The position numbers and the translations under genes were made by a program. A stretch of DNA of 64,000 nt from Candidatus Cloacimonadales bacterium (lineage in GTDB: Bacteria > Cloacimonadota > Cloacimonadia > Cloacimonadales > JAIOQZ01). Shown here piece by piece: positions 1-33,458 of this stretch. The notes below the pieces were generated by a model, which was not told the DNA's origin, ran no database searches, and worked only from the letters and a program-made list of their open reading frames with translations. Location of the stretch: contig OY771587.1 of NCBI GenBank assembly GCA_963674825.1, positions 992,001-1,056,000 on the forward strand. Direction: 5' to 3'. How positions within the stretch are numbered: position 1 is the first letter of the stretch; each line of letters starts with the position of its first letter.

Positions 1-55
1 CAGATTACAGGAGAAGTTTTAGCATAAATGCGAGAGACGCGAGAAGGAGAATCGG

Positions 56-2038
56 ATGACTTGGCTATCGAGTAATGAATTGTGCGATATGTTGGATGTT
101 ACTCGGCCTGGTCTGTATAAAATCGCAAAGAAGCAGGCATGGTCGACAAAACAAGTCAAGATGGAGCACGGAGGTCATAGGAAGCTTTATGAGGTGCCAG
201 ACGATTATCTCGTAGAAAAGACAGGTCAGGTAACTCCGTTCCCTTCTCATGCGGAGTCATTGCCTGTGGCGATTGACGACTCAATCCCTGATTTGCGACC
301 CAAGATAGATATCCCCCTCGACCTGCAAGAGCAAGCTGAACTACGCGCCAGGCTATGCGAGTTAATCTTGGAAGAACTCGAGCAGTCGGAATCGCGCATG
401 GAGACGTGGGTGGCTATGACGGCGAGCTACAATGCCGGTGAGTTGCTTCCTGAGTTGTTCAAGCTTGAAGGTAAGCATGGAGAGCGTACGCTTCGACGTT
501 GGGTGAAGCAGTATGAAGCCGCGAGTAAGAGCAGCGAGGTGTTGATTCGAAGCCGCAAGCTTGGGCAGCCGGAACGAAACCTGACAGAAACTGAGCAGAA
601 CTTCCTGCTCCACCTGCTACTGACACCGAATCGCGTCTCGATTGGTTCGGCGATACGTAAGCTCAAGCAAATGGAAGCCCTCGACAAACTTGAAACTCCC
701 GCCAGCAAGCCAACTCTTCGTCGTTGGTGCGAGGAGTGGCGCGACAGCCACAAGCCCGAATGGAACCTGCTCCGCAACGGTAAGAAGTCGCTCAAAGAGA
801 CTGGCATCCAAAGCATTCTTCGCAGTGACGAGCTCGAGGTCGGCGACGTATGGGTGGCAGACGGTCACAAGCTCGCCTTCGACATCATCGATCCGGCTAC
901 CGGAAAGCCCAGACGCATGACAATGATCATGTTCTTCGACTGGGCTTCCCGTTACCCGGTAGGAGCGTCGCTGGCGGTCTCGGAAGACTCTCAGCATGTG
1001 TTACTGGCTCTCAGAAACAGCATCATGCATTGGGGCGGCAGACCGAAGTACGTGTATCTCGACAATGGCAAGGCGTTCCGGAGCAAACTGTTCAACAAGC
1101 AGTGGGAGAAGCACGACCTCAGCAAGGAGTTGGAAGGCATCTTCCCGCGACTGGGCATCGGGGTAGCCTTCGCCAAAGCCTACAACGCGCGTGCGAAGGT
1201 GGTTGAGAGGTTTTTCCGAACCTTTCAGGATGATTTCGAGCGATACATGACTACCTTCCGGGGCGGCTCGATTGACGACAAACCTGCAACGCTCAAACGT
1301 AACGAGAAGTGGTTACGGAACATCTTCGCAGGAAAACCGCTGACGATTCCTCAGGCGAAGGCGATGATCGGGCTCTACATCGAGAAGATGTACGGACTGA
1401 CGCCGCATGGTGGCTTGAACAGCGCGAAACCCGCTGAGGTTTTTCACAACGCTATCGTGCCTGACGACCAGAAGATCGATCCTGCGAAGCTCAACTTCCT
1501 CATGCTCGCGGCGGCGAATCGCGTAGTGCATGCGTCCGGCGTCCGCTTCAGCAACGTGCTCTTCTGGCACGACTACCTGATTCAGCACATCGGCGACAGA
1601 GTCACCCTGCGCTACGACCTGATGGACATGCGCTCGGTGCTGGTTTACGACGCGAAAAACCGCTTCATTTGCCAGGCGGAAGCGCGTCGTCACCAGCATC
1701 CATTCATCCATCTCGCCAAGGACAAGCCGCAAGCACAGAAGGCCCTCCAGAAGGAACTGCAGAGCATTCGCAAGCTCGAGAAGAACGCGCAGGAGTCATC
1801 CGAAGCCATCCTGCTCAAGGTCAACGAAGCCGTCGGCCAGATACAGCAACCGATGACCGAAGAGATTGGCGAGATATTCGCAAACCAGCCGCTGATCGAG
1901 CAGCCGAAGCCGGAATTTACCATCGACGACATCGTGAAGGCGTCGGCTGAGGGTGAGAACATCCAGCTTGATACAAAGCCTCGCGAGGATGAAGAGCTCA
2001 ACTTTGAAGAACTGATGAAAGCAATAGGAATAGGATAG
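56..2038 (+). CDS. Mu-like DDE transposase (MuA/TnsB family)
   Basis: N-terminal HTH; catalytic-like motifs WVADGH, YLDNGKAF, KVVERFF; C-terminal RYDLMD beta-domain; GGAGA RBS. Confidence 0.93.
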   Translation: MTWLSSNELCDMLDVTRPGLYKIAKKQAWSTKQVKMEHGGHRKLYEVPDDYLVEKTGQVTPFPSHAESLPVAIDDSIPDLRPKIDIPLDLQEQAELRARLCELILEELEQSESRMETWVAMTASYNAGELLPELFKLEGKHGERTLRRWVKQYEAASKSSEVLIRSRKLGQPERNLTETEQNFLLHLLLTPNRVSIGSAIRKLKQMEALDKLETPASKPTLRRWCEEWRDSHKPEWNLLRNGKKSLKETGIQSILRSDELEVGDVWVADGHKLAFDIIDPATGKPRRMTMIMFFDWASRYPVGASLAVSEDSQHVLLALRNSIMHWGGRPKYVYLDNGKAFRSKLFNKQWEKHDLSKELEGIFPRLGIGVAFAKAYNARAKVVERFFRTFQDDFERYMTTFRGGSIDDKPATLKRNEKWLRNIFAGKPLTIPQAKAMIGLYIEKMYGLTPHGGLNSAKPAEVFHNAIVPDDQKIDPAKLNFLMLAAANRVVHASGVRFSNVLFWHDYLIQHIGDRVTLRYDLMDMRSVLVYDAKNRFICQAEARRHQHPFIHLAKDKPQAQKALQKELQSIRKLEKNAQESSEAILLKVNEAVGQIQQPMTEEIGEIFANQPLIEQPKPEFTIDDIVKASAEGENIQLDTKPREDEELNFEELMKAIGIG

Positions 2039-2050
2039 GGAGGTACATAC

Positions 2051-2785
2051 ATGAGAGAGAGAATTTTAGCGGAAACCGAAAACGTGCGCGGGGCGAAGAA
2101 ATGCATCGCCTACCTGCAGGACCGCCCGAAGACCGAGATGGTCGGGCTGGGGCTGCTCTATGGTGCGCCGGGACTGGGCAAGACCCGCTTCGCCAAGCGA
2201 CTCGCCTACACCAACGACTACATATACTTGAGGCTGGAAGCCTCGATGACGGCGAAGGTGTTCGCGCGCGAGCTGCTTCGCCTACTGCACTACCGGTACG
2301 ACGTCTCGGACGAAGGCTATCATGGCTCGACGAGTACGCTGTTTCGTCGTTGCATCGACCTGTTGCAATCGCACCCGGAAGCTGTGGTTATCATCGATGA
2401 AATCGACTACGCCTTCAACCAGCCGATGCTGCTCGGTTCGATTCGAGACATCGTGGACGAGACGCTGGCCATTGTGGTGCTGGTCGGCATGAAGGACGCG
2501 AAAGAGAAGCTGCTCAAAGCCAACGCGCACTACTTCGACCGGTGCAACTATTTCTACGAATTCAAAAAGTTGTCACGAGAGGATGTCGATCTTGTCTGTA
2601 AAGCCGTCTCCGAGGTGAAGATGCGCTCCGACTTGGTGACGTACATTCACAAGACAACCCACGGTAACTTCCGTCGGATCATCAAAATATTTGAGGTTGT
2701 CGAGAAGGTAGCCGCCGCCAAGCAGCTTACTGAAGTATCGCTTAACGATCTGCAAGAAACGCAGGAGCTGAAGAATGCGTCCTAA
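2051..2785 (+). CDS. MuB-like AAA+ transposition ATPase
   Basis: Walker A GAPGLGKT, Walker B IIDEID; directly downstream of transposase; GGAGG RBS. Confidence 0.9.
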   Translation: MRERILAETENVRGAKKCIAYLQDRPKTEMVGLGLLYGAPGLGKTRFAKRLAYTNDYIYLRLEASMTAKVFARELLRLLHYRYDVSDEGYHGSTSTLFRRCIDLLQSHPEAVVIIDEIDYAFNQPMLLGSIRDIVDETLAIVVLVGMKDAKEKLLKANAHYFDRCNYFYEFKKLSREDVDLVCKAVSEVKMRSDLVTYIHKTTHGNFRRIIKIFEVVEKVAAAKQLTEVSLNDLQETQELKNAS

Positions 2786-3062
2786 CATTCCTGCCAGGCG
2801 CGTCATCGACCGCTTCGTCGAGTATCATAAGCGGCCTTTCACCGTGAAGGACGTCGCCAACGACACAGGACTTCACCCCAAGACTGTGCGCAATCTGCTG
2901 CCGCAACTGGTTCAAGCAGGCAGAATTCGTGTACTGATGCGGGAGCAAGCCGGAAACATCTACGGCAAACCTGTCGCCATCGGCAAGCAGAGAAGCGCAA
3001 TTAGGCTTTATTGGACAGTATTGATGAAAAAACAGCTCGGGCTATTTCCATCGTATTATTGA
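2775..3062 (+). pseudogene. Phage early wHTH protein, C-terminally truncated by cargo
   Basis: wHTH-like FTVKDVANDTGLHPKTVRNLL; GC-rich sequence turns AT-rich at ~2995 and the frame runs into the 3' end of the antisense gene. Confidence 0.6.
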
Positions 3063-3812
3063 ATTCTTCGATGTTTGATCCATTTGTACGTTAATAAATT
3101 GGTCAATTTTATCAGGGTCAGGATTTTTACGATCAGGTTCTACTTGCTCATACCAGGTCTCCCAATTAGCAGGATCAAGAAAGGTAATCAGCCCAACCCC
3201 AAATTCATTGCAAAGGTCAATCAATTCATCAACCTGCTGTGTATTATCCTCTAATTGCACAACAAGGTAACTATAATGAGAGAAGAGAGAATGAGATGCC
3301 GTTTCAAAAACTCCGGTTTTATCTTTATGATAGCCTTTGGGTTTAACTTCAAAAGTTATTACTTCTATTGAGCGACCAATTTGATATTGATAGGATTTGA
3401 GGGCTACAATAGTAATATCTGGTCGCGACCATTTCCCACCGGTTCGTTTCCTACCTTGGTTAGCAGTAATCTCAATTACAAAATTCTTATCTAAGCGTTT
3501 GTCTTTCACCCAGTCCTGTGCAATCACTTTCTTAATATCCGGATACAGGTCTTTCTCAAGCTTTGCTTCGTGTTGGTCACTTTCTATGATTTCTACATCA
3601 GAATTTAAAGGTTCAGTGTCAACGAGTTTGGTAGCGCCTCCCTTGCCCCGTCCCATTGTTACTTTACCTTCGTCAATCAATTCATTTCTTGCTTCAAAGA
3701 ATGAATCAGGTGATATTTTAAGGTTTCTCTGCAGTGTAATATTTCCTATAATACCATCCGTTGACAGTCTCAGCTCATTCAGAATTCGCTGTTTGATATC
3801 ATTGATTTCCAT
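3042..3812 (-). CDS. wHTH + PD-(D/E)xK nuclease-like protein (candidate defence gene)
   Basis: N-terminal wHTH with GRGKGG wing; RPDITIV...FEVK motif; AT-rich and antisense to phage genes. Confidence 0.7.
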   Translation of the reverse strand: MEINDIKQRILNELRLSTDGIIGNITLQRNLKISPDSFFEARNELIDEGKVTMGRGKGGATKLVDTEPLNSDVEIIESDQHEAKLEKDLYPDIKKVIAQDWVKDKRLDKNFVIEITANQGRKRTGGKWSRPDITIVALKSYQYQIGRSIEVITFEVKPKGYHKDKTGVFETASHSLFSHYSYLVVQLEDNTQQVDELIDLCNEFGVGLITFLDPANWETWYEQVEPDRKNPDPDKIDQFINVQMDQTSKNSIIRWK

Positions 3813-3901
3813 AATCCCTTTCTCCTCTTCTATGTTTCAAGATGGATATTCATCGAACAATAATAATGTTGTCAAATCATTTAGGGTATGTACGCAATTT
3901 T

Positions 3902-4291
3902 ATGAATAGCTACCGACCGGATGAAATCGCGGGCTGCTTGAACGTCAACATCTCGACGGTCTACCGGTTGATCCGCGACTTCGACGACCCGCTTCCCGCG
4001 TTCCGCCTCAAGGCCAACGGACAGTTGCGCGTACACGGGCAGTCCCTCAAACAGTACGCCGACAATCCGCAGGACACCGCGCTGCAGTCGCTCGTATCGC
4101 TCCTCAAGCAGTACCAGAAGGAGCTCGAGCCGAGCAAGGACTTGATCGACTACATGAAGCGGTTCTTGGACTGGCAGATCGATTTCTACCACGCAAGGGG
4201 CGATGAAGCGACCGCGAAAGCCATTCAGCGGGAAATCCTCGGTGAGGACGGGCTCGTGGCCTATTTCATGAACCATATGACAGGAACGTAG
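3902..4291 (+). pseudogene. Chimeric ORF: excisionase-like HTH N-terminus fused to probable small terminase C-terminus
   Basis: MNSYRPDEIAGCLNVNISTVYRLI HTH, then an abrupt switch at ~4040 to helical SLKQYADNPQDTALQSLVSLL...; lies just before the terminase large-subunit remnant. Confidence 0.5.
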
Positions 4292-4303
4292 ATATGGGAT
4301 TAA

Positions 4304-5608
4304 CTATATCTCAAGCAATCTTTTGTATTTCTCGCGGTATTTATTGGGAATCCGATCAAAATCATAAAGCTGTAATGCATCCTTGAGCCGTTGCTTACAG
4401 TTTAGATAACTTTTAACCCGACTACTGATTAGATTATCTTCCTCAAGCAGGATAAAGATGAAACTTATTTCTGCAGGCGTAAACTGCTTTATCATTATCT
4501 CATAGTATATGACCGCAGCGAAAGAAACACCATACATATTTCCTATATAACATAGCATTACAGTTAGAACAAACTCCCTCTTTGCTGAATCAGGGATAGG
4601 AGTATTGCTTGTCAATTCCATAAGTCTTTGCGCAAATGGAGGTTCGTTATAAAAATTTTGGAATGCATGATGTACATTGTAGAGGTTTTTGCAAGCACTT
4701 GATATTATACTATGCTGCTCTGATGTATGCAATACTGATAACAGATTTAATTTCTCAAAAAATATTCTTGATGCTCTTTGTTTTTCTTCTTTTCCTTGAG
4801 CTTGATATTCAGAGTGCTGATTTACAAGCATCGAAATCACTTCATCAGTAAATTGCGTCTTCAGCCCCATACATATATTAAGAGAATTCATCCTAGTTGT
4901 TTCGTTCTCTTCAGAGTTACAATAAACACCATGAAGAGCTCTGAGAAGCATCTCTCTTTGAGCCGTGTATGTATTTTTGAATCGATCAATCCAGATAGAG
5001 ATCTGTTCAGAATCAAATCTGTCATTGCGAATTGCATCATAGAATGATTTTGCATCTATCCCTATAATATTAATCTCTTTTGAAAGCGCGTGCTTAGCAA
5101 TTCTATTCAGAAATGAAATGAACTCTCTATCGTTGAGCTGCCCCGTATTGGGGTGTGCTGCCGAGTAATTATTTCTAACTTCTCTGGATTGATTTAGGAA
5201 AAAGTACCCCTCTTCACTAATTAAATTCAACTCAAGACAAAGGTGCAGAAGATCATTGTCCCGCATTTCTAAAAGAGTTTTCTGATTAATATCCTTTTGG
5301 GTTATATCCTTTATAATATTGAGTCCAAAATTCTCCAATCTATCTCTTAGATAACGGATACCCGCATTCCAAGCATAGTTAATAGCTCCATCAAATAGCC
5401 CAACTGACACTGCAATACACATTTTAGCTATTAGCTCATTCCTTTGTCCTTCGGGTATTAATGCAAGTTCCCGAGGTAAACCTTGCCATGCATATGAGAT
5501 TTCCTCTCTGCTTGCTACATAATCTCTTAATACACTCAAATTACTAAGCACATGGTCAATATGTGGTAAAGTAACCTCTGTAATTGCTGGCAATGTAATA
5601 TCGCACAT
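4304..5608 (-). CDS. Uncharacterised 434-aa helical protein with HEPN-like RX6H motif
   Basis: Long AT-rich ORF with GGAGG RBS; REVRNNYSAAH motif; occupies the position of the terminase large-subunit gene. Confidence 0.6.
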   Translation of the reverse strand: MCDITLPAITEVTLPHIDHVLSNLSVLRDYVASREEISYAWQGLPRELALIPEGQRNELIAKMCIAVSVGLFDGAINYAWNAGIRYLRDRLENFGLNIIKDITQKDINQKTLLEMRDNDLLHLCLELNLISEEGYFFLNQSREVRNNYSAAHPNTGQLNDREFISFLNRIAKHALSKEINIIGIDAKSFYDAIRNDRFDSEQISIWIDRFKNTYTAQREMLLRALHGVYCNSEENETTRMNSLNICMGLKTQFTDEVISMLVNQHSEYQAQGKEEKQRASRIFFEKLNLLSVLHTSEQHSIISSACKNLYNVHHAFQNFYNEPPFAQRLMELTSNTPIPDSAKREFVLTVMLCYIGNMYGVSFAAVIYYEIMIKQFTPAEISFIFILLEEDNLISSRVKSYLNCKQRLKDALQLYDFDRIPNKYREKYKRLLEI

Positions 5609-5656
5609 TTTTCCTCCAATATTTACAAATCAGAAAAGCTTGTCTCTTGTCAAGCA

Positions 5657-5854
5657 AAACGCGTGGACACAGTCGTCGAGACCGGCAAGGTAGTCTTCCC
5701 GGACGGGCAGGATACGCCGACCCTCGTCAGTCAGTTTCTCACCTATCCGCAGGGCTATGTGGACGGCCCGGACGCCCTCGCGGGCTGCCTCGAACGCTTC
5801 CCCGAGTACGACACCGGCCGCAACAGAACCAGAGTTCGGAGCTTCCGGTTTTGA
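5657..5854 (+). pseudogene. Terminase large subunit, C-terminal remnant
   Basis: QFLTYPQGYVDGPDALAG resembles the terminase RNase H C-terminal motif; no ATPase domain, only ~65 codons remain. Confidence 0.75.
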
Positions 5855-6729
5855 CCTATTTCGACCGTGTGATGCTCGAGTATTACCGTGTCCTCAACAA
5901 TGCCTGGCAGCGCGAGGTGCGCGAGTCGGCGACGCAGGCCATCAGGGCGTTGTCCGACATCCCTCGTCACGAGAGGCTCAATCGCACCCATATCGACGAC
6001 GTTCTCGCCGTGATCGACTCCAACCTCGGCGAGGATTTTTCGTCCGCTGTGCGCGCTGAAACGAAGGCGTACATTCAGCGGTGCATGCTGCTGGGCCTGA
6101 ACGACGCGCAGAAGCAGGTTCCGCACAACACCCGCATCGGCTTGTACGGCGCACGAGAGAAGCGGCTCGAGACCGTCATCACCCGCCAGAACCTGTTCTG
6201 GATCGGCGAACGCTACGGCACGGACATCTCGCAGAAGTTCCGTTCCACACTTACCGAAGCCGTAGCCTCCGGCTACACGAAGAAGATGCTGCAAGAGCAA
6301 CTCGCGGAGCAGTTCAAGGACTTGGGCGCGAAGTCGCAGCACTATTGGCAGGGGTTGGCGGAGCACACCGCGCTCCGAATCCGCGAGTTCGGCAGGCTGG
6401 AGGGGTATCGCAAGGCTGGCGCGAAGTACTACCGACTAATGGTTGTGCTCGATGATCGCACGTCGGATATCTGCCGCGCCCTCGCCGCGCAGAACAAGGT
6501 GTATCCGCTTTCCGACGCGCTCGAGGTGATGGAAGACTTGCTGGCCATCGATCCCAAGCAGCATAGCCTCGAGTCGGCGCGAGAACGCACGAAGGAGCTT
6601 GCGCCGTGGGTCAGCGAAGACATGATAGAACGAAACGCCAGCGGCAAGCCCACGGGCGTCTCAGGAAGCCATACGCCCTTCCCACCATTCCACTGGAAGT
6701 GCCGGACCGGGACGGAGGTGGTTGTTTAG
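5851..6729 (+). CDS. Phage minor head/head morphogenesis protein (Mu gpF / SPP1 gp7 family)
   Basis: DDRTSDIC and PPFHWKCRT motifs; TTG start overlaps the terminase stop. Confidence 0.85.
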   Translation: MTYFDRVMLEYYRVLNNAWQREVRESATQAIRALSDIPRHERLNRTHIDDVLAVIDSNLGEDFSSAVRAETKAYIQRCMLLGLNDAQKQVPHNTRIGLYGAREKRLETVITRQNLFWIGERYGTDISQKFRSTLTEAVASGYTKKMLQEQLAEQFKDLGAKSQHYWQGLAEHTALRIREFGRLEGYRKAGAKYYRLMVVLDDRTSDICRALAAQNKVYPLSDALEVMEDLLAIDPKQHSLESARERTKELAPWVSEDMIERNASGKPTGVSGSHTPFPPFHWKCRTGTEVVV

Positions 6730-7093: not shown

Positions 7094-7322
7094 CGTAGTC
7101 TCCTTTGTGCTCCTAAGTATGTCTCTACGATAAAGATCGCGCACAGGAAGTCAAGTCCTTAAGACGGCATAAATGTTATTTTTTGTGTGATTTAGCGGGT
7201 TGTAAAGGGATCATATAGACGCGGTGTATCAAGAAGTTTCGTACAGAGGCAAAAGTGTGGCTTCAACAAAAAAGCCATTTATCGGCAAGATGAATTTGAT
7301 TCTATTTCATGACAGTCACCTT

Positions 7323-8855
7323 TTATAATATCTCAGAATCTTCAGATGCTTGCCTGACACCGAATACAGGCATGTTTTTCCCCAAATATTCCACATCAAG
7401 TTTTCCTAATTGATACTTGATAGTATCTCTCATTCTACGTGCTCTATCGAGACAATAATGCTTGAAATCGCGAGTACTTATGTCGCTTGCACTTCGTACA
7501 TGTGGAAACAACAATTTCAAATACGCTGTCGCAATACGCTTGACAGCTTCTGTGTCACGAGTGTCTGCTGCCATTGGAACTTCAACAAGTTCATCAACAA
7601 TGGTGCGATAACTTGTATCATCGCGCAATTCATGCATAATCGAGCAGTAGTATTCTGAGTTTATCGCCCATCCTGAAATTTTCAGATCATCATTCATTCT
7701 GGGAATGTTCCAACCTTTTATAAATCCGTGGAAACGTTCGACTAAAGCTGACTCATGAAACACGGAAGGCAATTCCTCGAACATATTTCCGTAACCATCC
7801 TCATCCATCGTTTCCTTTTTAATATTGCCACAAAGAATAACGCCTGATTCAGCAATTCCTTCATAGTTTCCGACTGTGAATATTCCTGACTCAAGATAAC
7901 CTTTTAAAGCAGCGCGCATCTCATCAATATCTGAAAATGATATCGTCTGGACTTCATCAAGAGTTATAAAATCGTTTCCAGACACTAAGCCTTCAACCCG
8001 CTTATTTTGGTCATAGAACATTTTTGCACGACTCATTATGCCTCCACTTGAAAGCCATCCAAAACGGCTTACTCGGCCAAATAAATACGACTTGCCAGTT
8101 CCTTTAGGGGCTAGCTCAATAAGATTCAAGCGCTTCTCTATGAATGGGAGCAAACGAGTAAGCATCGTGAGTTTCTTCTCTTCAGGTTCAACACCGTTTA
8201 TGTAATCACTTGGGTTATCAGTTTCAAGAGAATACCCGCTCGCGTTGTAGTCAACTGCTCCAAGCAGTATGTCTATCCATTCTGAGGTGGAGAATTCACG
8301 TCGTGCATCTTTGAAATAGTCAATATCAATTGTGTATGGACAGAAAGATTTAAAAGCTGTCAGCTTAATTTTTCCACGATTCGCACTTCTCGCTTTGTTG
8401 CTGGAAAACTCCATATCGAAACAGTCTGGTGAACGATAACCTATCTCAAGCATTCCCCAGGTTTCACGTCCCCGAACTAAGTCTTCTTTGCAATATTGCC
8501 ATACAGAATCCTCGATAATTGTGTCTTTGCTTGTCAGCCCAAAGTCTGGTAACGCAAACGATACCTCACCTGTTCTGATATCAATGTCAATCGCAACCTT
8601 AGCAAGAAACTTCACCCTCTCGTGTTCGATAATAACTTTGTTTTTTATCGCTATCCAGTCATCCTTACGCGGCAGATATGTTCGAACAAAGCTTAACAAC
8701 TCATCTGAGTCGAAATGACCATTAGCGTCCTCGAACCTTTTCAGAAGCCAATCACGCATAAATGAAGGCAGGCTTAAAGCAGAAAAGAAATTGCTCTTCT
8801 TGAGATCTTTATATACTACCATTTCATCAAAGCAGTTCCTGAGCTTATCAATCAT
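7323..8855 (-). CDS. brxL: BREX BrxL AAA+ ATPase (short form, no evident Lon protease domain)
   Basis: LIELAPKGTGKS Walker A, LDEVQ Walker B, ALKGYLESG, ERFHGFIKGWNIPR; last gene of the BREX operon. Confidence 0.9.
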   Translation of the reverse strand: MIDKLRNCFDEMVVYKDLKKSNFFSALSLPSFMRDWLLKRFEDANGHFDSDELLSFVRTYLPRKDDWIAIKNKVIIEHERVKFLAKVAIDIDIRTGEVSFALPDFGLTSKDTIIEDSVWQYCKEDLVRGRETWGMLEIGYRSPDCFDMEFSSNKARSANRGKIKLTAFKSFCPYTIDIDYFKDARREFSTSEWIDILLGAVDYNASGYSLETDNPSDYINGVEPEEKKLTMLTRLLPFIEKRLNLIELAPKGTGKSYLFGRVSRFGWLSSGGIMSRAKMFYDQNKRVEGLVSGNDFITLDEVQTISFSDIDEMRAALKGYLESGIFTVGNYEGIAESGVILCGNIKKETMDEDGYGNMFEELPSVFHESALVERFHGFIKGWNIPRMNDDLKISGWAINSEYYCSIMHELRDDTSYRTIVDELVEVPMAADTRDTEAVKRIATAYLKLLFPHVRSASDISTRDFKHYCLDRARRMRDTIKYQLGKLDVEYLGKNMPVFGVRQASEDSEIL

Positions 8856-24684: not shown

Positions 24685-24689
24685 GAGAC

Positions 24690-24893: not shown

Positions 24894-25216
24894 TGGACAT
24901 CAGTTACGCCACCTTTCGCAAGGTGCTCTCAACGCTGCTTCGCAACGATCAACTCCGCGACGGACTGAGCGACCTGCTCGCCGGTAACGAGGTTGAGTTG
25001 AGCGAGGTCGGCTTCCTGGACTTGCTCGAAGAGTCGCACGTCGACATCGACATCCTGCGCATCCTCACCGGACGCGAACCGGAGGCCATCGGGCCGGAAC
25101 AGGCGGCGGAGGCGTTCACGGCTTTTTTCTCGGCTGTCAGAGGCAGTTGGCGCGCGTTTCAGCCCTTGCTCGAAGGTTTGGGCTACACGGCGCAGGTCGA
25201 AGCGGGGACAGCATAG
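24890..25216 (+). CDS. Tail assembly chaperone (G-like)
   Basis: Acidic 108-aa ORF with an in-frame slippery heptamer and an overlapping -1 frame ORF. Confidence 0.7.
   Translation: MMDISYATFRKVLSTLLRNDQLRDGLSDLLAGNEVELSEVGFLDLLEESHVDIDILRILTGREPEAIGPEQAAEAFTAFFSAVRGSWRAFQPLLEGLGYTAQVEAGTA
25123..25129 (+). other. -1 programmed ribosomal frameshift site T TTT TTC
   Basis: X XXY YYZ heptamer in frame with the 24890 ORF; -1 frame open to TAG at 25341. Confidence 0.75.
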
Positions 25217-25341
25217 AACGTCTCGAGATGGCCCTGCGCGGGGCGGGGTTCACGCAAGCCGATTTTTGCGAGCTGAGCCTGCCCGAACTCTACCTCCGCT
25301 ACTGCCTCGCCATCGAAAACACAAGGAAACACAATGGATAG
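25124..25341 (+). CDS. GT-like frameshift extension of the tail chaperone
   Basis: -1 frame ORF ending ...LSLPELYLRY; no good RBS of its own. Confidence 0.65.
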
Positions 25342-26095: not shown

Positions 26096-26864
26096 CGTCA
26101 TCGGTTGGGTGGGCGGCAAGCGACTACTGCGCAAGGCGATCCTGCCGCTCATCCCGAAGCACGACACGTACTGCGAACCCTTTGCCGGAGCGGCGTGGAT
26201 ACTCTTCGCCAAGTCGCGCGACCACAAGGAATGGCAGGCAACCAAGGGCCAGAAATACCGCGAAATCCTCAACGACATCAACGGCGAGTTGGTGAATTTC
26301 TGGCGGCATGTGAAGCACCATCCGGCCGCGCTGAAAGCGGAACTCGACCGGTTTCTCGCCTCGCGGGAGCTGTTTCACGAGTTTCTCGATAGCGCGTCGC
26401 GCACCGACCTCGAACGCGCCGTGCGGTTCTACTATGTGCTGGCGTGCTCCTACGGCAGCCTTTCGAGCACCTTCGCTGTTCGTGGTCACCTGACGATGCT
26501 GCCGATCCGGCGCGTGGGCAAGCTCGAAGCCGCCAGCGAACGCCTGCGCGACGTCATCATCGAGCGACTCGACTACGAGGCTGTCATCCGCAAGTACGAC
26601 CGCCCTGCGACCTTCTTCTACATCGACCCGCCGTACTACGAGCGTGAGATGCTCTACGAACGCGACCGGGTAGCGGCGTTCGACCAGCACGAGGAGCTTG
26701 CGATGCTGCTGCGCGAGGTGCAGGGCAAGTGGTTCCTGAGCTACAACGACCATCCCGTCATCCGCGAGCTGTACAAGGGGTTCACCATCGATGTGGTGAA
26801 CACGCGATACTCGGTGTCGGGGACGAACAGGGCAAGCTCAGAGATATTGGTTAGAAATTACTAA
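26088..26864 (+). CDS. Second DNA adenine methyltransferase (Dam/D12 class)
   Basis: WVGGK, YCEPFAGA, NDING, DPPYY. Confidence 0.92.
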   Translation: MNSVIGWVGGKRLLRKAILPLIPKHDTYCEPFAGAAWILFAKSRDHKEWQATKGQKYREILNDINGELVNFWRHVKHHPAALKAELDRFLASRELFHEFLDSASRTDLERAVRFYYVLACSYGSLSSTFAVRGHLTMLPIRRVGKLEAASERLRDVIIERLDYEAVIRKYDRPATFFYIDPPYYEREMLYERDRVAAFDQHEELAMLLREVQGKWFLSYNDHPVIRELYKGFTIDVVNTRYSVSGTNRASSEILVRNY

Positions 26865-26876
26865 AGTATGACTGAA

Positions 26877-27215
26877 TCATTTCTTTGCAGTTTTCCTGTC
26901 CAAAATAGCTTGGAGAACTTTGTGATCCATATAATGAGCCAGCCAATGAGGTTCCTCAAATGGTTTCTTCAGGGACTCCAACCTATCAATCTCATCTTGA
27001 AGTTCCTCAATACTGTACTCGAGGAACCTCGAGAACTTGTCATCCAGTTTTTTGTATGTGAAGTCCTCAAGGCTTTCGTATCCCATGACCTCAAGAAGAA
27101 ACGCAGTATTTGGACGTGCATCTTGGTCAACAGGTACCGATTTAAGGGGTTTGTTGAGCTCCAGACCCAGAAGTTTTCGGACAGTCTCGATACTTGGATA
27201 ATCTGCAGTTGTCAT
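26877..27215 (-). CDS. Small acidic hypothetical cargo protein
   Basis: GGAGG RBS; AT-rich; TTGACA at 27262-27267 on the minus strand. Confidence 0.65.
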   Translation of the reverse strand: MTTADYPSIETVRKLLGLELNKPLKSVPVDQDARPNTAFLLEVMGYESLEDFTYKKLDDKFSRFLEYSIEELQDEIDRLESLKKPFEEPHWLAHYMDHKVLQAILDRKTAKK

Positions 27216-27271
27216 GATTCCTCCTTGTTTGATGTGCTGATGATGAAAGATTGAATGAGGATGTCAAGTAA

Positions 27272-27760
27272 ATGGCAACATTGAAGTTCCGCATCATCAT
27301 CGAGAAGGGCGACGCGAATGCGGCTATCACCGACGTCGAGGCGCAGGTTGACGACCTGAAGCAGAAGGCGGAGGAACCGAAGTCGCTGAAGCTCGACGCG
27401 CAGGCCGCATTGGGCGTTATCCGCGACGTGATGCTGAACCTGTCGTCCCTGAAGTCGGTCATCGATGGCGTCGTGGGTAAGGCGAACGACCTGCTCAACG
27501 CTTCGCTCAAGCAGCGGCAAGCCGTGACCCTGACCAACATCGCGTTCGGCGAGCAATCGGAATCGATGCAGGAGTTTGCGTCACGCATGCAGGCGGTGAC
27601 CAACCACGGCGACGAGGAGCTGCTGCCACTCATGGCGAAGATGCGGCAGACGTTCAAAATGACGACCGAGGAGGTGCAGGCCATCACGCCGTACATCCTC
27701 GATTTCGCGGACGCTAACGCATCCACCGACGTCGAGGCGAAACAAAATAAACGATTATAG
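27272..27760 (+). pseudogene. Tape measure protein, N-terminal remnant
   Basis: Helical Ala/Gln-rich TMP-like N-terminus; GC-rich sequence ends at ~27740 and the ORF stops after 162 aa. Confidence 0.75.
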
Positions 27761-27840
27761 AAATGAAATATTAAACTTGACATGGATCATTTGGTTTGAT
27801 ATGGATTTAATAATTAATCATGACAACATATGGAGGAACC

Positions 27841-28722
27841 ATGAAATATTTTCTTCTCGCTATCGTGTTAATGGCGTACAGCCTGCTTGTAGCCGAAACC
27901 TGGATATACGAAAAGACCGTCGTCGAGCTTCCCATGGGCGAAGCGGAAAATCAGTTGAGCCTTGTACTCGTTCCAGATGGCTACGAAGAAATGGATTCAG
28001 GTCCAACAAGCTTCACCATTGATGAGGACGAAAATATTTACATACTGACTCGACGCAAAAACATCATCAAGAAGTTTGACCGTAATGGCAACTTCATCTG
28101 CGCATCGAAATACGAAAAGGGTGCAGGAGATGTCATCCGATTTCTTGGATATCATAATGGAATGGTTTACACCATGAGTTGGGGGTCTGATCGTCCATAT
28201 GTCCGAAGATATAACAAAGACCTCGAATACATTGGTTGTTCTTCTTTACATAAAGAAAGAGGTCCAACTGTTGGTCTGAGCTTCATTGAAAGCAATGCGG
28301 ATAAGTTTGGTTTACTCATCTACGATGGTCCACAAGCGATACAAGCTGGCGAACTTGTGTTGCAAAATAACCAATATCATCTTAAGAAAATGAAACTGTT
28401 CGATTTCACCTATAAGCCAGTTGACCTGAAAAAGATGTGGCATTCCGATATTGGATATCGATTTATAAATTATGACAGGGATAACTACTTGTATTTCGAG
28501 AACTTGGTTGCTCCATTGACAGCGACAGAACTCGGCATTGTAACGGAAAAAGGTGACTTTATCTCCACGAATGTCGTTTTCGATTCAAATTTAGTTCATG
28601 ACGTTCATTTCTACGATAGAGTTTATCCTTTTGTTTCAAAATCTGGTGTTGCTTATAGCTTGGTTGTTTCCAAGGACAAAATTGAATATGTCCGTTGGTA
28701 TAAAACAGGAGTAGAGAAATGA
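27841..28722 (+). CDS. Secreted hypothetical protein (probable beta-propeller)
   Basis: Signal peptide MKYFLLAIVLMA; NHL-like blade GPTSFTIDEDENIYIL; GGAGG RBS. Confidence 0.7.
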   Translation: MKYFLLAIVLMAYSLLVAETWIYEKTVVELPMGEAENQLSLVLVPDGYEEMDSGPTSFTIDEDENIYILTRRKNIIKKFDRNGNFICASKYEKGAGDVIRFLGYHNGMVYTMSWGSDRPYVRRYNKDLEYIGCSSLHKERGPTVGLSFIESNADKFGLLIYDGPQAIQAGELVLQNNQYHLKKMKLFDFTYKPVDLKKMWHSDIGYRFINYDRDNYLYFENLVAPLTATELGIVTEKGDFISTNVVFDSNLVHDVHFYDRVYPFVSKSGVAYSLVVSKDKIEYVRWYKTGVEK

Positions 28723-30542
28723 GAATATCCATATTCACAGTTTTCATTATTGGAGCTACTAGTTTATTATCCGTAAACATGAACCTTGCTGTCGACTATC
28801 TCAATATGGAATGGATGGTGAATGGCCCCAACGTCTGGAACAACTACACCGATACAGGAGATCCGCATCAGGGATACACTGAAGCTCATCCTTGCGACTG
28901 GGTAGATGGTATCGGTACAACCATTACCGGCATGCCCTACCACTATGGAGGCAAGGATTCATTTGCACAATGGGATAATGATTACGTAAACGGAAACAAC
29001 GGCCCCGGCGCTCATACAATTCATTATCAGATAAACTCACCCACTTCACGGGAATGGGCGGCCGGTATTGACTGTTCCGGTTTCGTTGGAAGGTGTTGGG
29101 GGATATCCGAGGTTTCAATAGGAGGTTTTGGATGTGGACATATTCGTGATAATTACCCCAACATTGCACCCCATCTGGTTCAACCCGGTGATGCATTTGT
29201 AGCTAGCACTCATGCCAGACTTTGCTATGGAAGATACGAAGATGATCCAACAAATCAATGGGTAGAGGTAATTGAAGCAATGTCTGATGGAGTAAATAAA
29301 GTGGAGAAGAATATCTATAGAATCGAAGATATGATAGCTAGTGGCTTTGGCTGTTACTCCTGCTCGGATTCCACCAACATCTCTGCCGGCTCCGTCTCTG
29401 GAACCTGGACGCTGGAAGATGGACCATACTTGATCGGTGGCGACATCCAAGTCGATACGACAGCAACGTTGACCATCGAAGCCGGCGTCAACGTGATTTT
29501 CACCGGGCACTACAAGTTCACCATATATGGTAAATTGCTCGCACAGGGTACCGAGGACATGAATATCTTCTTCACCGCAGAAAACACGATCGCCGGCTGG
29601 GGCGGCCTGAGGTTCATCAACAACAACACCAATGAATTCGACCAGTCCCGACTGACACACTGCAAGATCGAATACGGAAACGCACAGGGGAACTGGCCTG
29701 ACAATGTGGGAGGGGGAATTTTCTGCCAGTATTCCAATACGATCATCGACACCTGTGTCGTGACCAACAATAGCGCCCTTGCAGGTGGTGGTATTTACGT
29801 GAATCATTCCAACCCGGAGATCTATTACACGCTGATATCGGAGAATCACGCACAAGAGTTCGGCGGAGGAATCGCAGCGTACGACAACTGCATGTTCTTC
29901 CTCATGAACAACACCATTGTCGATAATACCGTGGATGTGTCAGGCAATGTAGGCGGTGGCATTTTCTGCGATATGTCCTGCTGGGCGTACATTGTGAATA
30001 CGATTGTATGGGGCAATACGTCCTATCAGGTATATCTGTTTTACGATAGAGACTATACGATCAATTATTGCAACATAGAGGATGCCATATATCCAGGTGA
30101 CGGAAATTTCTCGAGCGATCCACTGTTCAACGGTTCGGATCCCACTCACTATGAGCTGACGAGCAATTCGCCCTGCATCGACACCGGACACCCTAATTAT
30201 AACGATCCGGACGGTACAAGAAGTGATGTCGGCGCATTTCCGTATTTCCAGTTACCGGAGCCGCCGGAAGTGACGATCAGCATACAGAACAATCAGGTGA
30301 GTCTCGCCTGCGGAAGCGTGTCTCGAACCAGTTATATAGTCTATTCTTCCGACGATCCGGAAGGGACTTTTACAGAGGATGAGACAGGATCGTTCGACGG
30401 AAATGTTTGGACTGCGCCCTTGACGGATGATTCGAGATTCTACTATGTCACGACCGATACAGGAAGTCGCCGTGAGAATTCGGAAGTGACACCATTGAGT
30501 GAACTGATCAACAACCACAAGCGTTTGCATATACAGCGCTGA
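28719..30542 (+). CDS. Secreted NlpC/P60-like hydrolase + parallel beta-helix + C-terminal domain
   Basis: Signal peptide; PYHYGG, GIDCSGFV, PGDAF..H; GGGI..N repeats; SPCIDTG..DVGA. Confidence 0.75.
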   Translation: MRISIFTVFIIGATSLLSVNMNLAVDYLNMEWMVNGPNVWNNYTDTGDPHQGYTEAHPCDWVDGIGTTITGMPYHYGGKDSFAQWDNDYVNGNNGPGAHTIHYQINSPTSREWAAGIDCSGFVGRCWGISEVSIGGFGCGHIRDNYPNIAPHLVQPGDAFVASTHARLCYGRYEDDPTNQWVEVIEAMSDGVNKVEKNIYRIEDMIASGFGCYSCSDSTNISAGSVSGTWTLEDGPYLIGGDIQVDTTATLTIEAGVNVIFTGHYKFTIYGKLLAQGTEDMNIFFTAENTIAGWGGLRFINNNTNEFDQSRLTHCKIEYGNAQGNWPDNVGGGIFCQYSNTIIDTCVVTNNSALAGGGIYVNHSNPEIYYTLISENHAQEFGGGIAAYDNCMFFLMNNTIVDNTVDVSGNVGGGIFCDMSCWAYIVNTIVWGNTSYQVYLFYDRDYTINYCNIEDAIYPGDGNFSSDPLFNGSDPTHYELTSNSPCIDTGHPNYNDPDGTRSDVGAFPYFQLPEPPEVTISIQNNQVSLACGSVSRTSYIVYSSDDPEGTFTEDETGSFDGNVWTAPLTDDSRFYYVTTDTGSRRENSEVTPLSELINNHKRLHIQR

Positions 30543-30559
30543 TTCACTACTCACTTTAG

Positions 30560-30943
30560 CGCATCCTCTCCATCTACATCATCTCGCTGCCCGGTGGCAC
30601 GCTACGACTGGTCAACAAGGACGACGCCTCGAATGCGGTCACCACAATCGATTCCGCCGACGTCATCGAGTTCAAGCGCAAGCGGCTCAACCGTTCGCGG
30701 CCCGACACGTCCGTCCTGGACTGTCTCGTCGGCGACACGACCAACCTGAAGGCCCTCATCGCCGACCACTACGAAACCCTTTTCTGCCAGACGTGGAGCC
30801 TCGAAGCGACCGTTGACAACCTCGCCAAATACGACTTTGCCTTGTTCGACAAGCTGCTCGTCGAGGGCGTGCAGTACCGCATCACCGAGCTGCAGCGCGA
30901 CCCGAAGGCGGACGAGTATGTGCTCAAGGCGTGGGAGGTCTGA
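30560..30943 (+). pseudogene. C-terminal remnant of a phage tail protein
   Basis: Start-less GC-rich open frame YIISLPGG...EYVLKAWEV*, coupled (TGATG) to the next tail gene. Confidence 0.6.
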
Positions 30944-31392
30944 TGCTGTGCTACGACGGCTTTCGCATCATCTCCATCGCGGGCGGCGCGTACTCCGGGT
31001 TCGTCGTCGAGAGCGGCGTCATCGACTACCAGCCGCAACGCAAGTATCGCGTCGAGAAGCAGTGCGCCTTCGATCCGACCATCCTCATCCGGCGCGAGCC
31101 GTACAACGAAGATTCCATCGAGTGCGAGGCCTACTTGCATGCGACGCAGTATGACGATCTGTACGCCATCCTGAGCGGTGCAGACCTGCTCTTCATCGAG
31201 TTCGACACCGGCTCGGGGACGCTGCAGTTCCCGGTAGTGATCGACAAGCTGCCCAAGCTCGAAGACGATGCACGCTCCCATCGCAGCCGCATCAAATTCA
31301 CCCTCACCAGCATCTACAAGCAGTTGTCGCCCATCGACTTCGACAGCGTGTTCGGCTACGGCAACGGCTGGGGCGACTGCTGGGGATTTTAG
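30943..31392 (+). CDS. Phage tail protein (distal tail-like)
   Basis: Operon coupling; C-terminal FGYGNGWGDCWG. Confidence 0.55.
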   Translation: MLCYDGFRIISIAGGAYSGFVVESGVIDYQPQRKYRVEKQCAFDPTILIRREPYNEDSIECEAYLHATQYDDLYAILSGADLLFIEFDTGSGTLQFPVVIDKLPKLEDDARSHRSRIKFTLTSIYKQLSPIDFDSVFGYGNGWGDCWGF

Positions 31393-31400
31393 GAGGACGC

Positions 31401-32369
31401 ATGCCCGAAACCACCAACTTCAGCCTCTATCAGCCGGTCGCCGGGGAGTCAGGATGGGCCGCCGCGCTCAACGGTAACTTCGACACCATCGACGCGCTTC
31501 TGTACTCGCACCAGACCAGCATCGACGGTCACACGGGAACCGGCAGCAACAAGCACAACGCAGAGCAGATCCGCACCTCGGACGGCTCGGATGTGCAGTC
31601 CGCGCTGGCGGCCAAAGCGAGCCTGCATCACTCGCATCAGGCGGACGATGTCATCCTTCCCGATAACCTCGACATTGGCCATCACATTGCGAATATCAAC
31701 GACGATATCCAAAGTCTTGAAACAACGAAGGCTGCATTGCGGCACACCCACCAATCCGACGACATTCTCCTGCCTGACGGCCTCGAGCTTGGGCAGCATA
31801 TCGACAGCATCGACGACGACATAGAAGCACTCCAGACCGGCAAGGCGGACGCCACCCACGAGCACGCTGAATATGCCCTGCAAACCGCTCTGGACACGGT
31901 TGAGAACACTCTCGATCTGTTGTTGCCAGACCTTGCATCCGTGACGCTGAGCGTCGATGTCGTCAATCGCAGCGGCGGCATTCGCATTCTGTTCCACACT
32001 ACGCCGACGGTGCACTTCTCGCAGGCTGAAATCCTCATCGAGAAAGACGGCGTGGAGATGCATCACGAGACGGTTCTGAGCACATACGTTTTCATCGATG
32101 GAAGCGAGCTGAGCGGCGTCGAGAACGGCGATGTAATCAACCTTTCGGTGACCCTCTACAGCAGTCTCAGCTCCAAGATCAAGAAGGTCGACCACACCTA
32201 CGCGACCACGACCTCGCCGCTCGAGGAGCGGATCAAGGCCATCGAGACGCAACTCACCCTCGGCAACATCATCGACGCTTTCGCGCAGGACGAGGACGCC
32301 TTGCAGGCGTTGGCCAACGTGCTACATTCCTCGAACACCCTTGCGCAGAAGGTCTCGGAGCTGATGTAG
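31401..32369 (+). CDS. Tail fibre-like protein with HxH repeats
   Basis: LNGNFDTID N-terminus; ~38-aa repeats KA..HxH.DD..LPD; AGGAGG RBS. Confidence 0.65.
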   Translation: MPETTNFSLYQPVAGESGWAAALNGNFDTIDALLYSHQTSIDGHTGTGSNKHNAEQIRTSDGSDVQSALAAKASLHHSHQADDVILPDNLDIGHHIANINDDIQSLETTKAALRHTHQSDDILLPDGLELGQHIDSIDDDIEALQTGKADATHEHAEYALQTALDTVENTLDLLLPDLASVTLSVDVVNRSGGIRILFHTTPTVHFSQAEILIEKDGVEMHHETVLSTYVFIDGSELSGVENGDVINLSVTLYSSLSSKIKKVDHTYATTTSPLEERIKAIETQLTLGNIIDAFAQDEDALQALANVLHSSNTLAQKVSELM

Positions 32370-32370
32370 C

Positions 32371-32586
32371 GTGAAGACCATTCGCCAGAACACCGTTTGG
32401 GATCTGCTGAACCGCAAAACCAAGCCGACAGTCTCGACCGACCGCGATATCGCCTTCGTGAAACCGATCTATTCCACTGTCGACGAGAATCTGGTGCTCA
32501 ATGGCGAGCAGTTTCCGCCTGACGCCAAGCCGGGACAGGTGTTCATACGCAACGGAAAACCCTACATATACAAGGAGCAGACATGA
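32371..32586 (+). CDS. Small phage hypothetical protein
   Basis: Coupled ORF in the tail operon. Confidence 0.55.
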   Translation: MKTIRQNTVWDLLNRKTKPTVSTDRDIAFVKPIYSTVDENLVLNGEQFPPDAKPGQVFIRNGKPYIYKEQT

Positions 32587-32741
32587 CACAGACCGAACTC
32601 TACCAAACCACCAAACTGGAGCTGACGCACGAATACGAGCGGCTCCAAAGGCTTATTCAGGAAACCCGCGAGAAGCTGCTCAAGACCGAGGGCGCGCTAC
32701 TGCTACTCGGCCGGCTCGAACGTGAAGCGAAGGAGGCGTAA
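32583..32741 (+). CDS. 52-aa coiled-coil phage protein (below ORF-track cutoff)
   Basis: ATGA and TAATG overlaps with both neighbours; AAGGAG RBS; MTQTELYQTTKLELTHEYERL... Confidence 0.6.
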   Translation: MTQTELYQTTKLELTHEYERLQRLIQETREKLLKTEGALLLLGRLEREAKEA

Positions 32742-33217
32742 TGGCTGGCACATGGCAGGAAATCCTCGACTCCGGGCAGCTCGGCGTCGCCAACGGCATC
32801 GCGCAGCTCGACAAGTCCGGCAAGCTGATCACCGAGCAGATCCCGCAGATCGAACCGGGCAACATCACAGGCGTGCTCGAAGCGAGCCAGATCCCCGACC
32901 TTGACGCATCCAAGATAACCACCGGCGTCTTCGTCGTGGATCGCGTACCAGACCTCGATGCAGCCAAAATCGCTACCGGCGCCCTCGCCACCGACCGCAT
33001 CCCGACCCTCGCCCAGAGCAAGATATCAGGGCTCAACACGGCCCTCGCGGCCAAGGTCGAGACACGCACCAAGATCAACGGTCACGCGCTGGAAGGTGAT
33101 ATCAAGCTCGAGACCACCGACATTATCGCGGAGGTTACTGAGCTGCCAGAAGAGGGTGTCATCGGTGAGGTCGTCGCATACGCCGGGAAGCTGTATGTCT
33201 GGAGTGGGGATAAGTAG
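32741..33217 (+). CDS. Tail fibre/appendage-like protein with IPxLDAxKI repeats
   Basis: GVANGIAQLDKSGK and four ~18-aa repeats. Confidence 0.6.
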   Translation: MAGTWQEILDSGQLGVANGIAQLDKSGKLITEQIPQIEPGNITGVLEASQIPDLDASKITTGVFVVDRVPDLDAAKIATGALATDRIPTLAQSKISGLNTALAAKVETRTKINGHALEGDIKLETTDIIAEVTELPEEGVIGEVVAYAGKLYVWSGDK

Positions 33218-33236
33218 AATCGAAGGAAATCAACCG

Positions 33237-33265
33237 GCCTGCTCGACACGGGGCAGGCTTTTTTT
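33237..33265 (+). terminator. Rho-independent terminator of the late operon
   Basis: GCCTGCTC/GGGCAGGC stem followed by T7. Confidence 0.8.
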
Positions 33266-33308
33266 CTGATCAAAAACACCCATATAGTGCCATTGGTTTG
33301 GCAGAATT

Positions 33309-33458
33309 TGCCAAACCCGTGTCACTTTTCTGCCAAACCCGTGGCATTTTTGCCAAACCGCTGTCACTTTTTGCCAAACTGGTGGCACGCTTGCCAAACC
33401 CGTGGCAGCGATTTGCCACGTTTTTGTCACTTTTTGCCAAATCGCGTGTCACTTCACA
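33309..33458. repeat. Right-end array of 7 putative transposase-binding sites, ending ...TTCACA
   Basis: TGCCA(AA)..TG(T/G)CA units at 33309, 33331, 33351, 33372, 33392, 33414 and 33435. Confidence 0.8.

Follow-up and report, generated by a model that had tools for sequence, protein, structure and literature searches.

A defective Mu-like prophage in Cloacimonadales, probably decaying by replacement of its genes with cassettes

What becomes of a Mu-like prophage whose essential genes are interrupted by blocks of foreign genes? The question is raised by a locus in a 64,000-nucleotide stretch of a Candidatus Cloacimonadales bacterium genome (the window; positions below refer to it unless a contig is named). 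A sequence-only reading had taken the locus for a Mu derivative domesticated into a non-lytic, Tn7-like defence transposon. We consider a different account the most probable one, namely a defective Mu-like prophage, from a Cloacimonadota phage family with viable members, midway through decay by insertion-coupled deletion that resembles homology-facilitated illegitimate recombination (HFIR).

The element, a Mu-like prophage, spans 34,930 bp; both its ends are present, flanked by a 5-bp target duplication. TCTGA follows the right end at 33459..33463, and the left end, preceded by the matching TCTGA, was found where the sequence-only reading had suggested looking for it, in the upstream contig (G000:C1:990529, 1,472 bp ahead of the window). 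The left terminus is TA, not TG, and the right terminus CA; TA likewise ends E2, a sister prophage in the same genome, the intact provirus G061 and most other sisters, so it is a family trait. At the left end, the repressor gene c (247 aa, minus strand, upstream of the window) diverges from ner, both named from position and motif. Only the 3′ end of ner (1..55, plus strand) falls in the window, and a 1-bp deletion near the end of the gene shifts the frame and shortens the product from 78 to 67 aa, a loss of 11 aa. The MuA-like DDE transposase (56..2038, plus strand, 660 aa) and the MuB-like AAA+ ATPase (2051..2785, plus strand, 244 aa) are intact, as had been read, with family matches to PF09299, phrog_310 and phrog_296. 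The transposase is 91% identical to those of E2 and of a second co-resident sister, E3, and retains D269, D336 and E384, as aligned to TnsB and unchanged relative to E2. The right end (33218..33458) is likewise intact, with a terminator, six TGCCAAA repeats that are probably transposase sites, and the terminal CA.

Between these ends, the set of head and tail genes that E2 and G061 have in full is incomplete, which supports the view that the element is unable to form virions alone. All backbone genes described here lie on the plus strand. An early HTH gene (2775..3062) breaks at about codon 75-86 of 214, and an HTH remnant is fused to the C-terminal half of the small terminase (3909..4271) by a plain 249-bp deletion at a short direct repeat. 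The large terminase keeps its last 65 of 514 codons (5660..5854), in agreement with the earlier estimate, and is followed by an intact gene for a Mu F-like minor head protein (5872..6729, start approximate). A peptidase M15 endolysin, three small conserved genes and the portal (19561..22433) are all intact, and the fused prohead protease-capsid gene ends after the first 146 of 578 codons (22434..22858). The stretch 23935..26864 holds small conserved genes, a 181-aa gene that is probably the major tail protein, judging from its position, and two D12-class adenine methyltransferases; its first gene (66 aa), directly after the capsid, has lost its start codon. The tape measure gene retains the first 152 of 882 codons (27272..27728), and the next tail gene has lost 357 of 478 codons, its last 121 standing before the intact distal tail genes (30577..33217). 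The four cuts of the sequence-only reading are thus real, and its list of lesions has to be extended by the ner deletion, the 249-bp deletion fusion, the lost start of the 66-aa gene and the truncation after the tape measure.

Mapping against E2 and G061 placed the six blocks within about 50 bp of where they had been read and confirmed that four of them coincide with lost phage DNA. They are AT-rich as claimed (GC 0.36-0.45, against about 0.55-0.64 in the phage backbone), apart from the last, which at 0.45 is only mildly so. Cassette 1 (2969..3908, minus strand) brings in 939 bp for 1515 bp lost relative to G061, displaces gemA, DUF3164 and parts of two HTH genes, and carries a 256-aa ORF (3042-3812) in which a winged helix and a nuclease-like motif were read by eye. 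Cassette 2 (4272..5659, minus strand; 1388 bp for 1362 bp of the large terminase) has an exact −35 box 6 bp from its junction and encodes a 434-aa all-helical protein with 585 homologues across phyla (phrog_27609), whose predicted fold (pLDDT 88.5) had no PDB match at E 0.001. In the protease-capsid gene, cassette 4 (22859..23934, minus strand; 1073 bp for 1331 bp) encodes a 328-aa protein with its stop codon at the junction; the protein has weak PADLOC PDC-S31 matches and is DUF2971-like, as a lead only. Cassette 5 (26846..27271, minus strand; 112-aa ORF at 26877-27215) sits in a small intergenic slot at no cost in phage genes, and four other elements carry unrelated small cassettes in this slot. 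Cassette 6 (27729..30576, plus strand; 2848 bp for 3261 bp of the tape measure and next tail gene) encodes 300-aa and 607-aa secreted-type proteins with beta-helix.

The largest block (7161..19502, minus strand) is cargo, as had been proposed, but its 12.3 kb displace no phage DNA: it occupies a family-wide slot between muF and the lysin that is also filled in intact members. It contains a complete BREX type 4 core as defined in the available part of PMC12914056, with brxP (15305-17605), brxC (11143-15369), pglZ (8868-11174) and brxL (7323-8855) adjacent on the minus strand (PADLOC; NCBIfam BREX_PglZ_4 over its cut-off), and is a predicted defence system, expected to combine phosphorothioate modification with phage restriction. 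Upstream of brxP lies orf584 (17625-19379, minus strand), a homologue of which also precedes brxP in G049 and G043; Atlas searches with orf584 and the cassette 4 protein matched unnamed clusters only.

Such a mosaic could be an assembly chimera of several prophages and host DNA, the more so as the genome is metagenome-derived (judged from relatives) and holds 88%-identical sister prophages. We compared positions 4000-23999 with Logan contigs of two runs of one sample, possibly the source, two further runs of low or partial cover being excluded from junction support. The terminase and BREX blocks are each crossed by these contigs at their two junctions and the capsid block at its left one, with no differences and at flat depth, and the contigs reach 30 bases past the right junction of the capsid block; five of the six junctions in this interval are therefore fully spanned and the sixth by just those 30 bases. 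Two junctions, the right one of block 1 and the left one of block 6, recur identically in the genome of another species, and the element's target duplication matches, which together make a chimera extremely unlikely.

Replacement is not peculiar to this copy. Our sister sample comprised 17 elements from four genomes and one provirus, and relatives hold alternative cargo within the same backbone, as the sequence-only reading had led us to look for. A cassette has taken the place of a phage gene in 11 of the 17 same-genus elements, and of a virion gene in 10, in line with that reading's preference for replacement over random decay. Across 15 events, which were classed after being viewed and from which four alternative alleles (ratios 0.41, 0.59, 1.05 and 1.07) were excluded, insert and lost lengths are correlated (Spearman rho 0.85, median ratio 0.84), with ratios between 0.6 and 1.25 in 13; removal of the two largest leaves rho at 0.77 (13 events, permutation p 0.001). 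Eleven pure insertions or deletions were found besides, and in the host-chromosome control for length-matched swaps equal gaps may be diverged orthologues. Most cassettes open at their own −35 box: 15 of 20 cassettes have an exact inward TTGACA no more than 60 bp from a junction, compared with 29 of 913 inner 60-bp windows. We also considered joints made by the transposase, as the −35 box resembles the end motif, yet the distance from box to junction varies from 4 to 54 bp and the idea was rejected. The family members form a series: E2 and G061 are intact, the present element has several replacements, E3 consists of transposition arm plus cargo, and at the extreme only ends plus cargo are left, in remnants of 1-10 kb, one of them at a single locus common to G000, the element's own genome, and G002.

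Sister prophages, whether they share a genome or belong to different species, exchange multi-kilobase tracts, cassettes included. Between cassette 1 and a cassette found in two prophages of another species' genome (G001) the identity is 98.8%, whereas the host DNA at the element's locus is only 68-78% identical; the right junction is the same and the left one different. For cassette 6, the left junction and promoter recur in a G001 prophage, with a homologue in a G003 prophage and a 72% paralogue on the host chromosome. Thus each of the two has one shared and one new junction, and the new joints show 4-bp and about 11-bp microhomology. Further cassettes are common to several relatives, about 3.3 kb run without mismatch between E2 and E3, and conversion tracts among the G001 copies are 98.6-99% identical. 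The element itself is 82-96% identical to E2 and E3, shares no conversion tract with them, and holds six cassettes that both lack, which fits the arrival of a ready-made defective element better than six captures in place. The fetched elements, 80 viral loci and the element's own genome gave no nucleotide match to cassettes 2, 4 and 5 or to the BREX block, and donor DNA was found for none of these three cassettes. For the cargo, window positions 1-19600 searched as DNA against 232 genomes of the class, with about two candidates scored per genome, gave only BREX homologues of 68-70% among the matches listed. As a host donor of a relative's cassette, G000:C1:1672281-1674013 was rejected, since it itself adjoins prophage remnants.

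How might these observations be joined? In the viable phage, up to 12 kb of variable cargo sit between muF and the lysin, and resident copies take up further gene-sized, promoter-bearing cassettes, each time losing a similar length of adjacent phage DNA; cassettes are also shuffled among sister prophages. The conserved backbone could serve as the homology anchor for HFIR, in which one homologous and one microhomology joint would make insertion and deletion nearly equal in length. The loss of virion genes may be tolerated or favoured, as it disarms the prophage, and cassettes with their own promoter would tend to be retained. The length correlation is as HFIR predicts, and a pattern like that of its joints, one anchored and one with 3-10 bp microhomology, appears in cassette families 1 and 6. 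HFIR is known mainly from naturally competent species; ComEC and DprA are present in the host, as they are in 10 of 14 control genomes. According to the available parts of PMC3240628 and PMC2884548, HFIR has been described for ~1-kb events in competent laboratory species or for sub-500-bp loci. HFIR alone leaves the tight promoter-to-stop trimming of the cassettes unexplained. On the best reading, the element serves defence and surface genes as a landing pad and is no purpose-built transposon.

A domesticated, non-lytic defence transposon, moving in a Tn7-like manner within or between replicons with its transposition module under selection and its virion genes purged, would account for intact transposase, ATPase, repressor and ends in an element that has lost four virion or early loci, for the complete BREX core, and for E3 and G6, which retain only a transposition arm and 26-31 kb of cargo. 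We nevertheless regard domestication as improbable. No Pfam match to TnsA or TniQ/TnsD was found among the 48 window ORFs scanned, ner is frameshifted, and lysin, portal and tail genes are still present. Lineage dN/dS of the transposition genes (0.18) is not below that of intact virion genes (0.13) or dead remnants (0.11) and is the same as in intact elements; as even the remnants fall in this range, the losses appear too recent to register. Each element has lost its own set of genes, the transposase or ATPase is broken in G3_2124k, G3_1717k, G1_1616k and G3_499k, and sisters shrink to ends plus cargo. Uncontrolled replicative transposition of the Mu type is lethal. The large defence block uses a slot of the viable phage, and the family's cargo includes, in addition to defence, many host-type secreted and metabolic genes.

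Possible, though doubtful, is a helper-dependent natural mini-Mu. On this view replaced elements would transpose on induction, a sister in the same genome would provide terminase, capsid and tape measure and package the elements starting at their left end, and they would then insert into the genomes of new hosts; with the headful limiting size, each gain of cargo would cost phage DNA. Ends, target duplication, transposase and ATPase are all in place for this, the co-resident E2 possesses every virion gene and is 97.5% identical over the left 400 bp, and the four main G001 copies, each defective, jointly hold the whole virion set. End-to-end spans are 34.9, 34.2, 36.1, 31.4, 29.1 and at least 32.7 kb despite very unequal gene loss (E3 has swapped 29.4 kb for 31.5 kb), a second element lacking the tape measure has a matching duplication, and the insertion site is empty in G002 and G003. 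Yet headful packaging by Mu sets an upper bound on size only, one relative is down to about 19 kb and others are truncated or reduced to the remnants above, E3, G2C19 and G3_2124k lack matching duplications, and a duplication cannot tell whether insertion came before or after the replacements. The same defective element was not found at two sites among the 17 sisters or in left-end pattern scans, which gave 25 unrelated loci in metagenome contigs, none with backbone genes, and one already known match in viral sequences. Precedents, in the available parts of the sources, are complementation among defective prophages (PMC2669165) and headful packaging in transposable phages (PMC12135933). Mini-Mu transfer is compatible with HFIR as the route of cassette entry. 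Carried further, it could mean that size-matched mini-Mu vectors exist as a natural population in Cloacimonadales, ferrying promoter-bearing defence and surface cassettes between species, their virion genes traded one for one at near-headful length and complemented mutually or by an intact sister, a scenario we put forward tentatively; a satellite lifestyle would then have been born within a transposable-phage family without dedicated hijacking genes. A search of mainly open-access literature, judged by title and start of abstract, returned nothing on naturally occurring mini-Mu elements or satellites of transposable phages.

The usual picture of prophage decay is one of deletion and shrinkage. 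Under decay by replacement, this genus shows graded decay in which essential genes give way to self-contained cassettes of matching length, the conserved backbone acting as a recombination platform common to several species, and offers a testable natural case for HFIR-type capture. It also presents a hotspot of defence and surface genes in an almost unstudied phylum, for which our literature search returned no paper joining Cloacimonadota with transposable or Mu-like prophages, and bears on whether transposable phages have natural helper-dependent cargo derivatives.

The family resembles Mu and hankyphage in its divergent c and ner, MuA-like transposase, MuB-like ATPase, Mu F, repeated end sites, 5-bp duplication, 34-36 kb size and, in the sisters, GemA; it differs in the TA left end, the fused protease-capsid and the up to 12 kb of variable cargo in a viable genome, and the present copy in lacking terminase, capsid and tape measure. 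Tn7-like transposons and engineered mini-Mu vectors combine a DDE transposase and an ATPase with repeated end sites, a 5-bp duplication and large cargo. The element has all of these, but no TnsA or TniQ/TnsD, it retains a phage repressor and half of the virion genes, and no movement after gene loss was seen. Compared with BREX type 4 in the available part of PMC12914056, brxP, brxC, pglZ and brxL are likewise ordered and full length, but an extra upstream 584-aa gene is present, conserved at two other Cloacimonadota loci, and the block is housed in a prophage slot, whereas the G049 locus is not within a prophage. The defective prophages of E. coli O157 Sakai, as presented in the available part of PMC2669165, are also several related copies per genome that recombine and potentially complement each other; they are mainly lambdoid and their Mu-like member is intact, while complementation in our case is putative. 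HFIR products and dimorphic loci (available parts of PMC3240628 and PMC2884548) share the tie between insertion and like-sized deletion and the microhomology at one joint, but here the units are genes of 0.9-3.8 kb, exchanged serially inside prophages, and the mechanism is suggested by the junctions only. Like grounded or cryptic prophages, described as hotspots of gene acquisition (available parts of PMC6379469 and PMC13492144), the family loses capsid, terminase and lysis-type genes, keeps accessory genes and shrinks in the long term into small remnants; unlike in those accounts, loss is coupled to gain of similar length, so that the overall size persists despite several losses, and different species have broken alleles in common.

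E1, the element under study, is 34,930 bp long and lies in a host genome assembled as one contig of 3.89 Mb. The left end of the Mu-like prophage recognized in a sequence-only reading was located 1,472 bp upstream of the window, the right end is at 33458, and a TCTGA duplication borders the element on both sides; two congeners have the site unoccupied, with flanks 68-78% identical. A host -35 box facing outward lies ~45-100 bp downstream of the right ends of E1, the sister prophages E2 and E3 and the sister elements G2C19 and G3_2124k, a placement that may reflect target preference or selection.

The sister elements turned up in a search of the same genome. E2 (C1:2868687-2902922, 34,236 bp, with its own target duplication) has whole genes for terminase (514 aa), protease-capsid (578 aa), tape measure (882-887 aa), gemA and DUF3164 and carries one deletion, in a methyltransferase, and in the IMG/VR provirus G061 every reference gene is whole up to the contig limit. 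Comparison with both confirmed all six foreign blocks of the earlier reading at their positions, four of them in place of lost phage DNA (inserted/lost 939/1515, 1388/1362, 1073/1331 and 2848/3261 bp; cassettes 1, 2, 4 and 6 at 2969-3908, 4272-5659, 22859-23934 and 27729-30576). One block is a small intergenic insert (438/30 bp), and the 12.3-kb block (7161-19502) occupies a slot between muF and lysin that holds other cargo in E2, G061 and distant intact members and is nearly absent in one viral locus. Outside the slot, the losses of E1 add up to 7,718 bp and its gains to 6,686 bp. That reading had overlooked further lesions: ner is frameshifted, a plain deletion of 249 bp runs into the small terminase, and the gene that follows the tape measure is mostly lost. 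The left edge of the slot holds a 113-aa minus-strand ORF (6803-7144) that several sisters keep and others have replaced; in the E2 slot, a 72-bp muF-like piece (C1:2892936-2893007) between a truncated cytosine methyltransferase and a Schlafen-helicase gene is possibly the scar of an earlier swap. Contigs from two runs of one sample cross the junctions in 4000-23999 with zero differences, one by only 30 bases, and two E1 junctions beyond this range occur identically in the congener G001; an assembly chimera is very unlikely.

Transposase matches, weak ones counted, were obtained in 35 of 61 genomes searched and terminase matches in 248 viral stretches. Among 17 close elements mapped from the host genome, three congeners and G061, a cassette has taken the place of one or more phage genes in 11 (a virion gene in 10), two have all virion genes, one is a whole-looking contig fragment and three are truncated or rearranged; the more distant elements G7, G41, G53a and G53b show comparable cuts. 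With one allele per cassette family, lost lengths taken relative to G061 as ancestor proxy and event classes set after inspection, inserted and lost lengths were correlated (Spearman 0.85, n = 15 events). Inserted-to-lost ratios had a median of 0.84 and ran from 0.55 to 2.0; four alternative alleles, at 0.41-1.07, were excluded. The correlation coefficient was 0.77 for the 13 smaller events alone (permutation p 0.001) and 0.80 once 11 pure indels were added. An exact inward TTGACA lies within 60 bp of a junction in 15 of 20 cassettes versus 29 of 913 inner windows, a background that promoter regions are expected to exceed anyway. ORFs occupy the cassette gaps nearly end to end; on both counts the cassettes are tight units. 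The slot at 26846-27271 (cassette 5) holds unrelated small cassettes in E1 and four relatives, and in every one a reverse -35 box lies a few bases ahead of the start of the tape measure, as though the gene behind a retained promoter had been swapped.

The E1 slot carries the complete core genes of BREX type 4, as defined in PMC12914056. Upstream of brxP, a 584-aa gene (17625-19379) that matches no known family has the same placement in two further genomes, G049 and G043, and is a candidate accessory BREX-4 component. Cassette 2 encodes a widespread predicted all-helical protein, cassette 4 has weak PADLOC matches, and cassette 6 comprises two host-like genes of secreted type; its host paralogue (C1:1419582-1422350) is 72% identical, with the second gene apparently split into 200-aa and 387-aa frames. 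In relatives, scans of 67 and 54 out of 93 selected ORFs gave defence cargo (type I, II and III restriction systems, Sir2, Ppl-like, Abi_C and PDC genes) and non-defence cargo (FlgD/T9SS-tailed proteins, peptidases and a glycosyl operon).

Cassettes are shared between species. Two G001 prophages carry cassette 1 at 98.8% identity, versus 77-88% for the flanking backbone; its right junction is common with E1, the left differs, and 4 bp are shared at E1's joint. For cassette 6, a G001 prophage has the left junction and ~75 promoter bases in identical form and a different right junction, and G003 has a third allele. Co-resident copies share near-identical multi-kb tracts (~3.3 kb without mismatch between E2 and E3; 98.6-99% between G001 copies); pairwise comparison found none between E1 and E2 or E3. 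PMC3240628 and PMC2884548 describe homology-facilitated illegitimate recombination as producing an insertion together with a deletion of similar size, one joint being inherited and the other a new one with microhomology. Capture of this type would anchor in the multi-copy backbone and draw on incoming DNA, from phage or naked, and the alleles would spread by ordinary homologous recombination. Taken as one account, we consider this probable; the host has competence genes, which are not diagnostic, and the tight trimming of the cassettes is left unaccounted for. Helper packaging of defective elements under a headful limit, with precedent in PMC2669165 and PMC12135933, would fit the intact ends of E1, the compatible sister E2, the element span of 29-36 kb and the absence of conversion tracts from E1, yet no defective genome was found at two sites, and we regard it as doubtful.

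Domestication into a Tn7-like defence transposon, as first proposed, is improbable, as neither gene content nor selection pattern fits. For transposition genes, intact virion genes and dead remnants, E1-specific dN/dS was 0.18, 0.13 and 0.11 (0.07, 0.12 and 0.14 in E2), values that are approximate because the reference is a consensus of four mosaic sisters. Given their similarity, E1's losses are recent compared with the divergence of the backbone, and nothing in them sets the transposition module apart.

E3 consists of a transposition arm and 31.5 kb of cargo (36.1 kb in total, without a matching duplication). At its locus (C1:3769719-3811199), repressor, ner, transposase and ATPase are protein-identical to those of E2; the interior has an IS3 fragment and a degenerate inner right end at 3781840, followed by CHAT-TPR, adenylate cyclase, two giant secreted-type genes (3184 and 4569 aa) and the outer right end. 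With additional ends at 3770866 and 3775083 and elements there in congeners too, the locus is an insertion hotspot with nested ends. Several ends (right ends L035, L037 and L040) carry their terminal 7-28 bases in tandem, ever-shorter copies, and E2 has two left ends ~150 bp apart, which suggests that elements inserted repeatedly into earlier ends. The host genome has about a dozen orphan ends, some bracketing cargo alone (1-10 kb). An ends-only 6.9-kb remnant (C1:1662947-1669835; 1046-aa and 832-aa genes, both on the minus strand) adjoins the same tRNA pair here and in G002 (86% identical), where G001 has a near-complete prophage, and one G003 element is down to ~19 kb through plain deletions; size is therefore held over several swaps, not indefinitely.

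A literature search of partial coverage found no paper on transposable or Mu-like prophages in Cloacimonadota and, judged from listings, nothing on the subject among satellites or natural mini-Mu. E1 is a defective member of the Mu-like prophages, and the novelty of its family lies, within a known kind of element, in genus-wide length-matched swaps and cassettes common to several species. E1 is not a member of Tn7; it works like the grounded-prophage hotspot described in PMC6379469 and PMC13492144.
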